Origin: Escherichia coli 042
Lineage (GTDB): Bacteria > Pseudomonadota > Gammaproteobacteria > Enterobacterales > Enterobacteriaceae
Assembly (NCBI RefSeq): GCF_000027125.1
Contig: NC_017626.1
Reading direction: 5' to 3' (one strand)
Length of the DNA stretch: 64,000 nt
How positions within the stretch are numbered: position 1 is the first letter of the stretch; every line of letters starts with the position of its first letter. The notes under the pieces are model-generated. The model was not told where the DNA came from. It did no database searches and saw nothing but the letters and a program-made list of their open reading frames with translations. The translations under genes and the position numbers were made by a program. Positions 2,764-54,382 of this stretch are shown here, piece by piece.

Positions 2764-5439
2764 TTAAGCGGATTTCTTCGCTTTTTTCTCAGCTTTAGCC
2801 GGAGCGGCTTCTTTTTTCGCTGCAGTTTCACCTTCTACATAATCACGACCGTAGTAGGTATCCAGCAGAATCTGTTTCAGCTCGGAGATCAGTGGGTAAC
2901 GCGGGTTAGCGCCGGTGCACTGGTCATCGAATGCATCTTCAGACAGTTTATCCACATTCGCCAGGAAGTCTGCTTCCTGAACGCCAGCTTCACGGATAGA
3001 TTTCGGAATACCCAATTCAGCTTTCAGCGTTTCCAGCCATGCCAGCAGTTTCTCGATCTTAGCAGCAGTACGGTCGCCCGGTGCGCTCAGACCCAGGTGG
3101 TCAGCAATTTCAGCATAACGACGGCGAGCCTGCGGACGGTCATACTGGCTGAATGCAGTCTGCTTGGTCGGGTTGTCGTTCGCGTTGTAGCGAATAACGT
3201 TACAAATCAGCAGGGCGTTTGCCAGACCGTGCGGAATATGGAACTGGGAACCCAGTTTGTGCGCCATTGAGTGACATACACCCAGGAAGGCGTTCGCAAA
3301 CGCGATACCCGCGATAGTTGCTGCACTGTGAACACGTTCACGCGCTACCGGATTTTTAGATCCTTCGTGGTAGGACGCTGGCAGATATTCTTTCAGCAGT
3401 TTCAGCGCCTGCAGAGCCTGACCATCAGAGAACTCAGATGCCAGTACAGAAACATAAGCTTCCATGGCGTGAGTTACTGCGTCCAGACCACCGAAAGCAC
3501 ACAGGGACTTCGGCATGTCCATAACCAGGTTGGCATCGACAATCGCCATATCCGGGGTCAGCGCATAGTCTGCCAGCGGATATTTCTGACCAGTAGCGTC
3601 GTCAGTTACAACCGCAAACGGAGTGACTTCAGAACCTGTACCAGAAGTGGTGGTGACAGCGATCATTTTCGCTTTCACGCCCATTTTCGGGAACTTGTAG
3701 ATACGTTTACGGATATCCATAAAGCGCAGCGCCAGTTCTTCGAAGTGAGTTTCCGGATGTTCGTACATGACCCACATGATCTTCGCGGCGTCCATCGGGG
3801 AACCACCACCCAGCGCGATAATCACGTCTGGTTTGAAGGAGTTTGCCAGTTCTGCACCTTTACGAACGATGCTCAGGGTCGGGTCAGCTTCTACTTCGAA
3901 GAAGACTTCAGTTTCAACGCCTGCTGCTTTCAGTACGGAAGTGATCTGATCAGCATAACCATTGTTGAACAGGAAGCGGTCAGTCACGATGAGCGCACGT
4001 TTGTGGCCATCAGTAATCACTTCATCCAGCGCGATTGGCAGGGAGCCACGGCGGAAGTAGATAGATTTCGGAAGTTTGTGCCACAACATGTTTTCAGCTC
4101 GCTTAGCAACGGTTTTCTTGTTGATCAGGTGTTTCGGACCAACGTTTTCAGAGATGGAGTTACCACCCCAGGAACCACAACCCAGAGTCAGGGAAGGTGC
4201 GAGTTTGAAGTTATACAGGTCACCGATACCACCCTGAGAAGCCGGGGTGTTAATCAGGATACGAGCCGTTTTCATTTTCTGACCGAAGTAAGAAACGCGA
4301 GCCGGTTGGTTATCCTGGTCAGTGTACAGGCAAGAGGTATGACCGATACCGCCCATAGCAACCAGTTTCTCTGCTTTTTCTACCGCGTCTTCGAAATCTT
4401 TAGCGCGGTACATTGCCAGAGTCGGGGACAGTTTTTCATGTGCGAACGGTTCGCTTTCATCAACAACGGTCACTTCACCGATCAGAATCTTGGTGTTTTC
4501 TGGTACAGAGAAGCCTGCCAGTTCAGCAATTTTATAGGCTGGCTGACCAACGATAGCCGCGTTCAGCGCACCGTTTTTCAGGATAACGTCCTGAACAGCT
4601 TTCAGCTCTTTACCCTGCAACAGATAGCCGCCGTGGGTTGCGAAACGTTCACGTACTGCGTCATAAACAGAGTCAACAACAACAACAGACTGTTCAGAAG
4701 CACAGATTACGCCGTTGTCGAAGGTTTTGGACATCAGTACAGATGCAACTGCACGTTTGATATCAGCAGTTTCATCGATAACAACTGGAGTGTTGCCCGC
4801 GCCTACACCGATAGCTGGTTTACCGGAGCTGTATGCGGCTTTAACCATGCCCGGACCACCAGTCGCGAGGATCAGGTTGATGTCTGGGTGGTGCATCAGT
4901 GCGTTAGACAGTTCAACAGAAGGTTGATCGATCCAGCCGATCAGATCTTTCGGAGCACCGGCAGCGATAGCAGCCTGCAGAACGATATCAGCTGCTTTGT
5001 TGGTGGCATCTTTTGCTCGCGGGTGCGGGGAGAAGATAATGGCGTTACGGGTCTTCAGGCTGATCAGCGATTTGAAGATAGCAGTTGAAGTCGGGTTAGT
5101 GGTCGGAACGATACCGCAAATAATACCGATTGGTTCAGCGATAGTGATGGTACCAAAAGTGTCGTCTTCAGACAGAACACCACAGGTTTTTTCATCTTTA
5201 TAGGCGTTATAGATATATTCAGAAGCAAAGTGGTTTTTGATCACTTTATCTTCGACGATACCCATGCCGGATTCGGCAACGGCCATTTTCGCGAGTGGGA
5301 TTCGAGCATCTGCAGCAGCCAGAGCGGCGGCGCGGAAGATTTTGTCTACTTGCTCTTGAGTGAAACTGGCATATTCACGCTGGGCTTTTTTTACACGCTC
5401 TACGAGTGCGTTAAGTTCAGCGACATTAGTAACAGCCAT
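2764..5439 (-). CDS. adhE: bifunctional aldehyde/alcohol dehydrogenase AdhE (891 aa)
   Basis: 891-aa ORF, recognisable AdhE sequence. Confidence 0.97.
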
Positions 5440-51108: not shown

Positions 51109-51298
51109 ACTGCAGGCGCTGCGTCAGGCGCGCCTTGATTTATTAACCGGTAAACGGGTGGTGTCTGTCCAGAAAGATGGTCGCAGAATTGAATATACGG
51201 CGGCTTCTCTGGATGAGCTTAACCGGGCGATCAATGATGCGGAGTCGGTACTGGGGACAACCCGGCGTCGCCGTCGTCCGCTGGGAGTGAGGTTATGA
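51092..51298 (+). CDS. W: head-tail joining protein W (68 aa)
   Basis: size and sequence lambda gpW-like; GGAGGAG Shine-Dalgarno. Confidence 0.85.
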   Translation: MVTVAELQALRQARLDLLTGKRVVSVQKDGRRIEYTAASLDELNRAINDAESVLGTTRRRRRPLGVRL

Positions 51299-52887
51299 AA
51301 CGAACGCCTGTCCTGATTGATGTGAACGGCGTTCCGCTTCGTGATAGTCTCAGCTACAACGGGGGCGGTGCAGGATTTGGCGGGCAAATGGCTGAGTGGT
51401 TGCCACCGGCGCAGAGTGCCGATGCGGCCCTGCTGCCCGCGTTGCGTCTGGGGAATGCCCGGGCAGATGATCTGGTGCGCAATAACGGAATAGCGGCTAA
51501 TGCGGTGGCTCTGCATAAGGATCACATTGTCGGGCATATGTTTCTGATCAGCTACCGTCCGAACTGGCGCTGGCTGGGGATGCGGGAGACCGCAGCAAAA
51601 AGCTTTGTCGATGAGGTGGAGGCGGCCTGGTCGGAATACGCCGAAGGGATGTTTGGCGAGATCGACGTGGAAGGAAAACGCACCTTCACGGAATTTATCC
51701 GTGAAGGTGTGGGCGTTCATGCGTTTAACGGCGAAATCTTTGTGCAGCCGGTCTGGGATACGGAAACCACGCAGTTATTCCGTACGCGTTTTAAAGCCGT
51801 GAGTCCGAAACGGGTGGACACGCCTGGACACGGTATGGGGAACCGTTTTCTGCGGGCCGGTGTGGAGGTCGATCGATATGGCCGTGCCGTCGCGTACCAT
51901 ATCTGTGAGGATGATTTTCCGTTCTCTGGTAGTGGACGATGGGAACGGATCCCGCGTGAACTTCCCACCGGGCGTCCGGCCATGCTGCATATTTTCGAGC
52001 CGGTGGAGGACGGGCAGACCCGTGGGGCTAATCAGTTTTACAGCGTCATGGAACGGCTGAAGATGCTCGATTCCCTGCAGGCAACACAGCTTCAGTCGGC
52101 CATAGTGAAGGCGATGTATGCAGCGACGATTGAAAGTGAACTTGATACCGAAAAGGCCTTTGAATATATCGCCGGCGCGCCACAGGAGCAGAAGGATAAT
52201 CCGCTTATTAATATTCTGGAGAAGTTCTCCAGCTGGTATGACACGAATAACGTGACACTGGGCGGTGTCAAAATTCCGCACCTTTTCCCTGGTGATGATC
52301 TGAAACTACAGACTGCGCAGGATTCAGACAATGGATTTTCTGCGCTTGAACAGGCGCTGCTGCGGTATATCGCCGCCGGTCTTGGCGTTTCCTACGAACA
52401 GTTGTCCCGTGATTACTCGAAGGTCAGTTACTCAAGTGCCCGCGCCTCCGCCAATGAGTCGTGGCGCTATTTTATGGGGCGGCGAAAATTTATTGCGGCC
52501 CGGCTGGCCACGCAGATGTTTTCCTGCTGGCTGGAAGAGGCACTTCTTCGGGGGATTATTCGTCCGCCACGGGCACGTTTTGATTTTTATCAGGCGCGAT
52601 CAGCCTGGTCACGGGCAGAGTGGATTGGTGCCGGAAGAATGGCCATTGACGGGCTCAAGGAAGTCCAGGAATCAGTGATGCGCATTGAGGCCGGACTGAG
52701 CACGTATGAGAAAGAGCTGGCGCTGATGGGCGAGGATTATCAGGACATTTTCCGCCAGCAGGTCAGGGAATCTGCTGAGCGGCAAAAAGCCGGACTCTCA
52801 CGTCCGGTGTGGATAGCGCAGGCGTATCAGCAGCAGATAGCGGAGAGTCGCAGGCCGGAAGAGGAGACAACACCACGTGAGACGTAA
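51295..52887 (+). CDS. B: portal protein B (530 aa)
   Basis: lambda gpB-like. Confidence 0.9.
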   Translation: MKRTPVLIDVNGVPLRDSLSYNGGGAGFGGQMAEWLPPAQSADAALLPALRLGNARADDLVRNNGIAANAVALHKDHIVGHMFLISYRPNWRWLGMRETAAKSFVDEVEAAWSEYAEGMFGEIDVEGKRTFTEFIREGVGVHAFNGEIFVQPVWDTETTQLFRTRFKAVSPKRVDTPGHGMGNRFLRAGVEVDRYGRAVAYHICEDDFPFSGSGRWERIPRELPTGRPAMLHIFEPVEDGQTRGANQFYSVMERLKMLDSLQATQLQSAIVKAMYAATIESELDTEKAFEYIAGAPQEQKDNPLINILEKFSSWYDTNNVTLGGVKIPHLFPGDDLKLQTAQDSDNGFSALEQALLRYIAAGLGVSYEQLSRDYSKVSYSSARASANESWRYFMGRRKFIAARLATQMFSCWLEEALLRGIIRPPRARFDFYQARSAWSRAEWIGAGRMAIDGLKEVQESVMRIEAGLSTYEKELALMGEDYQDIFRQQVRESAERQKAGLSRPVWIAQAYQQQIAESRRPEEETTPRET

Positions 52888-54382
52888 TCTTTCACACATT
52901 ATTGCCGCAGCATTCAATGAACCGCTGCTTCTGGAGCCCGCCTATGCGCGGGTTTTCTTTTGCGCGCTCGGGCGCGAGATGGGGGCAGCAAGTCTTTCGG
53001 TACCACAACAGCAGGTACAGCTTGATGCTCCCGGAATGCTGGCTGAAACGGACGAGTATATGGCCGGAGGTAAACGACCGGCCCGTGTTTACCGGGTGGT
53101 GAACGGTATTGCTGTACTGCCGGTGACCGGCACGCTGGTGCACCGGCTGGGTGGTATGCGGCCATTTTCCGGAATGACAGGCTATGACGGCATTGTCGCC
53201 TGTCTTCAGCAGGCAATGGCGGATAGCCAGGTGCGGGGCGTACTGCTGGACATTGACAGTCCGGGCGGGCAGGCCGCCGGCGCGTTTGACTGCGCTGACA
53301 TGATTTACCGCCTCCGTCAGCAGAAGCCGGTCTGGGCACTGTGCAATGACACGGCCTGTTCTGCAGCCATGCTGCTGGCGTCTGCCTGCTCCCGACGGCT
53401 GGTTACCCAGACATCCCGTATCGGCTCCATTGGCGTGATGATGAGCCATGTCAGCTATGCCGGTCATCTGGCGCAGGCCGGTGTGGATATCACGCTGATT
53501 TACTCAGGGGCGCACAAGGTGGATGGCAATCAGTTTGAAGCGTTGCCGGCAGAGGTTCGCCAGGACATGCAGCAGCGGATTGATGCGGCGCGCCGGATGT
53601 TTGCCGAAAAAGTGGCGATGTTTACCGGTCTGTCTGTTGATGCAGTCACGGGAACAGAGGCCGCCGTTTTTGAAGGTCAGTCCGGCATTGAGGCCGGGCT
53701 GGCGGATGAATTAATCAATGCGTCGGATGCCATCAGTGTGATGGCCACGGCGCTGAACAGTAATGTCAGAGGAGGCACTATGCCGCAATTAACTGCAACG
53801 GAAGCCGCCGTGCAGGAGAACCAGCGAGTGATGGGGATCCTGACATGCCAGGAAGCGAAAGGACGTGAACAGCTTGCCACGATGCTGGCAGGGCAACAGG
53901 GCATGAGCGTTGAACAGGCCCGGGCGATTCTGGCCGCGGCGGCACCGCAGCAGCCGGTGGCATCCGCGCAGAGTGAAGCCGATCGCATTATGGCGTGTGA
54001 AGAAGCGAACGGTCGTGAACAACTGGCGGCAACGCTGGCGGCGATGCCGGAGATGACGGTGGAAAAAGCCCGCCCGATCCTGGCGGCTGCACCACTGGCG
54101 GATGCCGGGCCCTCACTTCGTGATCAGATCATGGCCCTGGATGAGGCAAAAGGGGCAGAAGCGCAGGCTGAAAAACTGGCGGCCTGCCCGGGAATGACCG
54201 TGGAGAACGCCCGGGCTGTGCTGGCTGCGGGATCAGGTAAGGCCGAACCGGTCTCTGCATCCACAACCGCCCTGTTTGAACATTTCATGGCGAATCATTC
54301 ACCGGCAGCGGTGCGGGGTGGCGTGTCACAGACGTCAGCAGACGGTGATGCGGACGTGAAAATGCTCATGGCCATGCCATGA
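52877..54382 (+). CDS. C: head maturation protease / minor capsid protein C (S49 family), 501 aa, with triplicated C-terminal repeat
   Basis: lambda gpC-like (AFNEPLLLEPAYARVFFCAL...); GTG start. Confidence 0.88.
   Translation: MRRNLSHIIAAAFNEPLLLEPAYARVFFCALGREMGAASLSVPQQQVQLDAPGMLAETDEYMAGGKRPARVYRVVNGIAVLPVTGTLVHRLGGMRPFSGMTGYDGIVACLQQAMADSQVRGVLLDIDSPGGQAAGAFDCADMIYRLRQQKPVWALCNDTACSAAMLLASACSRRLVTQTSRIGSIGVMMSHVSYAGHLAQAGVDITLIYSGAHKVDGNQFEALPAEVRQDMQQRIDAARRMFAEKVAMFTGLSVDAVTGTEAAVFEGQSGIEAGLADELINASDAISVMATALNSNVRGGTMPQLTATEAAVQENQRVMGILTCQEAKGREQLATMLAGQQGMSVEQARAILAAAAPQQPVASAQSEADRIMACEEANGREQLAATLAAMPEMTVEKARPILAAAPLADAGPSLRDQIMALDEAKGAEAQAEKLAACPGMTVENARAVLAAGSGKAEPVSASTTALFEHFMANHSPAAVRGGVSQTSADGDADVKMLMAMP
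53780..54382 (+). CDS. nu3: Nu3-like scaffolding protein from in-frame internal start within C (200 aa)
   Basis: internal ATG preceded by GGAGG, same frame as C, as in lambda C/Nu3. Confidence 0.45.
   Translation: MPQLTATEAAVQENQRVMGILTCQEAKGREQLATMLAGQQGMSVEQARAILAAAAPQQPVASAQSEADRIMACEEANGREQLAATLAAMPEMTVEKARPILAAAPLADAGPSLRDQIMALDEAKGAEAQAEKLAACPGMTVENARAVLAAGSGKAEPVSASTTALFEHFMANHSPAAVRGGVSQTSADGDADVKMLMAMP

Follow-up and report, generated by a model that had tools for sequence, protein, structure and literature searches.

The stretch of Escherichia coli 042 DNA analysed here (64,000 nt of contig NC_017626.1, hereafter the window) contains a set of phage head genes in which, as judged by synteny, a portal gene is followed by an S49 protease/scaffold gene, a decoration protein gene and a major capsid protein gene. 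The portal gene occupies positions 51295-52887. Its downstream neighbour, a protease/scaffold fusion gene that corresponds to gene 5 of phage 21 and is homologous to gene C of phage lambda, runs from 52877 to 54382 on the plus strand and figures in the list of open reading frames as a frame of 501 amino acids with a GTG start. Many E. coli chromosomes carry a 100% identical gene under the name 'S49 family peptidase'. In the RefSeq entry of one of these identical genes (NZ_CP083512.1, 6001-7506, equivalent to window positions 52877-54382) this name is the only annotation, and bacterial genome records list neither the repeats described below nor the scaffold gene nested in it. The S49 domain occupies the N-terminal 300 residues of the protein. 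A Pfam scan locates the Peptidase S49 (SppA-like) family PF01343 at residues 146-293 (53312-53755, plus strand) with an E-value of 1.5e-34 and a score of 119.6 bits (cut-off 24.9), phmmer matches the SppA structures 3rst and 4kwb over residues 77-290 (E ~4e-16), and the protein family phrog_53, 'head maturation protease', matches the 501-residue protein with an E-value of 2e-228. In the alignment with SppA, Ser162, which is invariant in lambda and in the Salmonella phage Gifsy-1, falls on the Ser of the AASGG motif, which we take to be the nucleophile, and Tyr209 faces the Lys of the IKSGAH stretch, presumably the catalytic partner; an invariant Lys (Lys214) is located nearby.

Nested within this gene, and sharing with it both the reading frame and the stop codon, is a putative scaffold frame of 200 amino acids (53780-54382, plus strand), the counterpart of gene 6 of phage 21 and Nu3-like in its arrangement. 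Its start codon, an internal ATG at 53780 that the first-pass annotation had already singled out, is preceded by an AGGAGG Shine-Dalgarno sequence that can be read at 53770-53775 of the plus strand with a spacer of 4 nt, and the corresponding Met is kept in the alignment of three-copy relatives. Translation of gp6 as a scaffold from this codon is putative and is based on the sequence-level match to the annotated start of gene 6. The frame ends with a C-terminal tail (residues 456-501 of the full-length protein; 54242-54379, plus strand) that contains a conserved F-E-x-F-M...SP motif and a terminal LMxMP motif. This tail is conserved among the three-copy relatives and aligns with the one that follows the single module of lambda.

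Upstream of the tail, in the C-terminal third of the 501-residue protein, are three degenerate repeats of about 40 residues each. The first-pass annotation had proposed them from three peptides at residues 321-355, 371-405 and 418-452 (53837-53941, 53987-54091 and 54128-54232), and both a repeat profile and pairwise alignment confirm that they are real. Smith-Waterman scores among the three segments range from 85 to 103, against a mean of 30.4 and a maximum of 53 in 2000 composition-preserving shuffles, and the repeat is therefore far beyond chance. A repeat HMM recovers three full-length domains with independent E-values of about 1e-27 each, which we name after the phage 21 annotation discussed below: Tri1 at residues 317-358 (53825-53950; 1e-27), Tri2 at residues 367-408 (53975-54100; 3.5e-27) and Tri3 at residues 414-455 (54116-54241; 2.9e-27), all on the plus strand. 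The three copies are 54-63% identical to each other in protein and 59-68% in DNA, and all of them keep the core signature E-A-x-G-x-E...L-A...M-T...A-x-x-L-A-A in both the E. coli and the Salmonella lineages. Tandem Repeats Finder detects no DNA period of ~141-150 nt, and a seed-based search returns short recurring seeds only; the repeat is visible at the protein level only. In the phage 21 lineage Tri3 reads GAE at a turn where at least 90% of the modules, including Tri3 of Gifsy-1, read GRE. An RNA element or promoter hidden in the repeats was also considered and, as far as such searches reach, was discarded: an RNA and promoter search gave neither an Rfam match at E ≤0.1 nor a promoter-like site, and the three terminator-like hairpins that were found are within chance (shuffle mean 1.0, sd 1.0).

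The feature is already known, as the repeats are the Tri boxes annotated in genes 5/6 of phage 21. The window gene aligns with phage 21 gene 5 over 1506/1506 nt in one ungapped piece with 97.9% DNA identity. In M81255, the entry for the head operon of phage 21, three repeat regions inside gene 6 bear the names 'Tri1 box', 'Tri box' and 'Tri3 box' and are qualified as 'function unknown; putative'. Transferred through the ungapped match with M81255, these boxes fall at 53847-53950, 53987-54097 and 54128-54241 of the window, respectively. Both this record and that of the complete phage 21 genome (OL657228) contain the gene 6 coding sequence and a putative ribosome binding site at the positions seen in the window, and the products in OL657228 are named 'capsid protease/scaffolding protein' and 'scaffolding protein'. 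The three repeats and the internal ribosome binding site with its ATG thus have the same coordinates in phage 21, and the neighbours are also those of the window: the portal gene on one side, the decoration (shp) and major capsid genes on the other. The differences consist of point substitutions only, which leave the 200-residue nested frames 95% identical. According to its genome record, phage 21 was obtained from a Paris sewer in the late 1950s, and its primary description is said to be that of Smith and Feiss in Gene in 1993. OL657228 also places two 'CII binding sites' within gene 6, equivalent to window positions 53785-53798 and 54019-54032 on the minus strand. These are pattern matches only (ttgynnnnnnttgy), and the pattern is loose enough that we estimate several chance occurrences per 43-kb genome.

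Gene order, the nested-gene arrangement, the type of module and a similar C-terminal tail are shared with lambda; the major capsid proteins are 62% identical and the S49 protease domains 60%, which bears out the first-pass assignment of the gene as a homologue of lambda C. Also correct was its statement that lambda has a single copy of the repeat, since lambda C (NC_001416), a protein of 439 residues against 501 in the window, contains one module, at residues 360-399. With three modules against one, the window gene does show a repeat expansion relative to lambda. The two proteins differ as well in the stretch between the conserved internal Met and the first module, which in lambda consists of ~50 low-complexity residues and in the window of 16 residues before Tri1. 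A tblastn comparison of the 200-residue frame with lambda yields one 36-residue match only. The description of this frame as Nu3-like stands as far as the in-frame overlap with the C-terminal part of the protease gene is concerned, but does not extend to the start: ATG 53780 is the annotated start of phage 21 gene 6 and not that of lambda nu3. The annotated nu3 start (5132, codon 239 of C) is located in the alignment 63 codons upstream of the internal ATG of the window and aligns with the Ile of QQRIDAARR. Because the lambda Met239 column is occupied by Ile in the window, the starts of nu3 (201 residues) and gene 6 (200 residues) are non-homologous. Lambda itself contains an AGGAGG-N4-ATG arrangement at 5332-5344, with the ATG at 5342 (codon 309 of C), which is homologous to window positions 53770-53782; judged from this sequence, lambda might produce an additional, shorter product of 131 residues from ATG 5342.

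The module extends well beyond these phages. A profile built from seven modules and run at E ≤0.001 against 1.84 billion representative proteins matched 802 proteins, each representing a cluster at 50% identity. Among the best 150 of these 802 matches, 54 full-length proteins have a single copy and one has three, the remainder being fragments; more than one copy is thus a rare exception. Three cluster representatives (P0026, P0029 and P0032) are chimeras of lambda C with Nu1, tail protein L or the tape measure protein; they are probably derived from vectors or assembly and slightly inflate the count of full-length single-copy proteins. A Peptidase_S49 domain was found by Pfam in all seven of the longer single-copy matches scanned, and the module is located about 80-90 residues from the C-terminus of these lambda-type S49 head proteases. 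Its consensus is ExxRIxGILxxxEAKGRExLAxxLAxxPGMTVxxAKxILAAAP, with conservation of 90% or more at I, E, A, G, R, A, L, A, A and L. Scans with Pfam and NCBIfam identified no family for the 200-residue frame or the module, and PHROG families derived from lambda Nu3 and similar scaffolds match the module three to four times. Matches of 130-140 residues looked at first like free-standing module proteins, but we make no claim of such proteins: the one short match examined (P0056) is the terminal (3') part of a longer frame that runs off a short contig and is followed by decoration and capsid genes.

Within this family the number of modules is not fixed, ranging in relatives from one to four. The copy-number variants come from close E. 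coli and Salmonella relatives. Two-copy forms (P0158, P0159, P0163, P0169 and P0172) are in-frame deletions or Tri1/Tri2 recombinants of the window allele, and a four-copy form is represented in E. coli prophages by P0175, a cluster with 48 member sequences. The internal copies of P0175 are more alike than those of the window, which suggests a separate and younger expansion. Further fragments of the four-copy type are P0005, P0008 and P0222, and a search of deposited phage genomes found the form in none of them. Shorter alterations also occur, as exemplified by the complete E. coli genomes NZ_CP098217.1 and NZ_OZ282436.1, which lack window positions 54023-54079. This deletion of 57 nt removes 19 amino acids that form the distal half of Tri2, leaves the frame intact, and in both finished genomes the gene is annotated as an intact S49 peptidase. 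The alignment with NZ_CP098217.1 reveals an 8-nt direct repeat at its ends, with CTGGCGGC at 54023-54030 on the left and again CTGGCGGC at 54080-54087 on the right, both on the plus strand. Since half of Tri2 can be lost with the frame preserved, either all three copies may not be required or the prophages in question may be defective.

As to the age of the triplication, the first-pass annotation had suggested a recent intragenic duplication. Phage 21 and Gifsy-1 do have three copies, and the copies are not near-identical in DNA. The prohead protease of Gifsy-1 (STM2605), another homologue of lambda gpC, contains three modules in the same order and conserves the internal Met (GGTMPEL), despite a DNA identity of ~72% and a scaffold part that is only 56.5% identical; it differs also in its Tri3, which retains the Arg (GRE). 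When modules of Gifsy-1 and the window are compared, those in the same position are 74% (first), 76% (second) and 62% (third) identical, against 45-52% for paralogous copies. This positional orthology implies that the triplication is older than the split of both head modules. The copies within the window are in agreement with such an age, as 32-41% of nucleotides differ between any two of them and synonymous divergence has reached saturation (pS 0.66-0.71). The flanks of the array indicate how it arose: Tri1 retains the long ancestral N-terminal helix flank (ENQRVMGIL, compared with ENSRIMGIL in the single-copy protein of lambda), and the tail behind Tri3 (FEHFM..SP) matches that behind single-copy modules, both of which are expected from an internal tandem duplication. 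In addition, among 5426 complete E. coli genomes, 1864 (34%) carry the whole 603-bp three-copy allele, at up to five places per genome.

A recent repeat expansion within this prophage lineage would be in keeping with the variation in copy number within the gene family, including the four-copy E. coli variant with its more similar internal copies, and with the existence of two-copy deletion or recombinant variants. However, copies that are only 59-68% identical in DNA and saturated at synonymous sites, with no DNA repeat of matching period in Tandem Repeats Finder, do not fit a recent event, nor do the positional orthologues in Gifsy-1, an arrangement already complete in a phage isolated in the late 1950s, and an allele carried by a third of complete E. 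coli genomes. Recent duplication is thus not supported, and we consider an expansion within this lineage extremely improbable. Instead, it is close to certain that the repeats are the Tri boxes of phage 21 and that they descend from an old triplication of a single-copy module.

The selective constraint on the modules is unequal. In comparison with Gifsy-1, the ratio of nonsynonymous to synonymous divergence (dN/dS) is 0.07 for Tri1, 0.05 for Tri2, 0.31 for Tri3, 0.14 for the protease domain and about 0.4-0.5 for the linkers and tail, values that are rough because dS is saturated. The higher ratio of the third copy compared with the 0.05-0.07 of the other two, together with its GAE in place of GRE, suggests that Tri3 may be under relaxed constraint. 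Structure prediction points to small separate domains. In the AlphaFold2 model of the 200-residue frame there are three helical units with pLDDT 70-83 joined by low-confidence linkers (pTM 0.28), with no fixed mutual arrangement of the units predicted, and one module on its own, modelled from an alignment of 71 sequences, folds into three short helices (pLDDT 82.4, pTM 0.62). Each module is therefore predicted to be an autonomous three-helix mini-domain carried on flexible Ala/Pro/Gln-rich linkers. A PDB search with the module profile returned only a chance-level match to haemoglobin, and there was no sequence match or significant fold match to the solved coat-binding domains of scaffolding proteins, including those of the P22 type.

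Taken together, we read the locus as the head module of a phage 21-type prophage in which an old triplication has produced three helical modules that would act as binding units in a multivalent manner, and we give this reading a probability of about 0.8. The modules would be carried by two proteins, the full-length protease gp5 and the shorter scaffold gp6 made from the internal start. Each module would serve as a protein-binding unit that, by contacting the major capsid protein and/or other scaffold chains, retains protease and scaffold within the prohead during assembly. In the lineage of phage 21 and Gifsy-1 the three copies would make this contact multivalent, in place of the long unstructured linker of lambda, and as a final step the protease would degrade the scaffold. 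Work on lambda provides a background for such a scheme, as interactions of Nu3 with itself and with the C, B and E proteins have been reported (PMC3224144), and Nu3 is a transient scaffold whose degradation, probably by C, precedes packaging (PMC3224144; PMC12005531). Moreover, scaffolding proteins of P22, SPP1, 80alpha and other phages bind the coat protein via small C-terminal helical motifs (PMC12005531). The Tri module resembles the helix-turn-helix hook of P22 gp8 and the motifs of SPP1, 80alpha and T7 in being small, helical and close to the C-terminus of an internal head protein that is present only transiently; it differs from them in having three helices, in not being basic, and in being repeated and fused to a protease. 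Three observations count against the proposed role. A count of charged residues puts the modules at near-neutral to acidic, whereas the coat-binding hook of P22 is basic; the natural variant without half of Tri2 keeps an intact frame; and Tri3 shows faster evolution and is without the Arg that is almost invariant elsewhere. The specific mechanism, in which the module anchors gp5 and gp6 in the prohead and the three copies provide multivalency or a longer reach, is more tentative than the overall reading, and we put its chances somewhat below even.

Other functions can be conceived for the additional copies. They could be spacers only: one module would act specifically, and the others would make the connection from the protease domain to the tail longer or more flexible, in place of the unstructured linker of ~50 residues in lambda. 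Such a role is suggested by the ~50 low-complexity residues that lambda has where the window has 16 before Tri1, by the natural variants that lose half of Tri2 and keep the frame intact, and by the state of Tri3, with its missing Arg and a dN/dS of 0.31. However, Tri1 and Tri2, at 0.05-0.07, are more constrained than the protease domain (0.14), and much more than the linkers (about 0.4), and the core signature has been retained in all three copies across the E. coli and Salmonella lineages, which makes pure spacers an unlikely explanation. The linkers between the modules are Ala-rich, in line with the preference of SppA-type peptidases for small or hydrophobic residues. Modules or linkers could be recognition or cleavage units of the S49 protease, a larger number of which would result in faster or fuller removal of the scaffold ahead of DNA packaging, and the degradation of lambda Nu3, probably by C, before packaging (PMC3224144; PMC12005531) is compatible with this idea. 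Nevertheless, the most conserved residues are those of the helix core and of the EAxGRE turn, a pattern to be expected of a folded domain more than of an extended cleavage site, and we regard cleavage units as more improbable still than spacers.

In all, the sequence record of phage 21 has listed the triplication since the early 1990s, and its description here has little discovery value; being long annotated and very common, it is an ordinary feature of these prophages. Its modest value is as a pointer to a conserved module of ~40 residues in lambda C/Nu3 proteins for which there is no domain model. A broader and more speculative proposal, which we think is more probably wrong than right, is that the Tri module represents an undescribed but widely conserved mini-domain for the binding of capsid or scaffold, on which the function of every lambda-type S49 protease/scaffold protein centres, and that its copy number, which in enterobacterial prophages ranges from one to four and still changes by slippage or unequal recombination, tunes valency. 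If this were true, the number of Tri copies would set the valency between scaffold and shell and hence the kinetics or fidelity of assembly. The natural alleles with one, two, three and four copies represent a ready-made series for the role of this module in prohead assembly.
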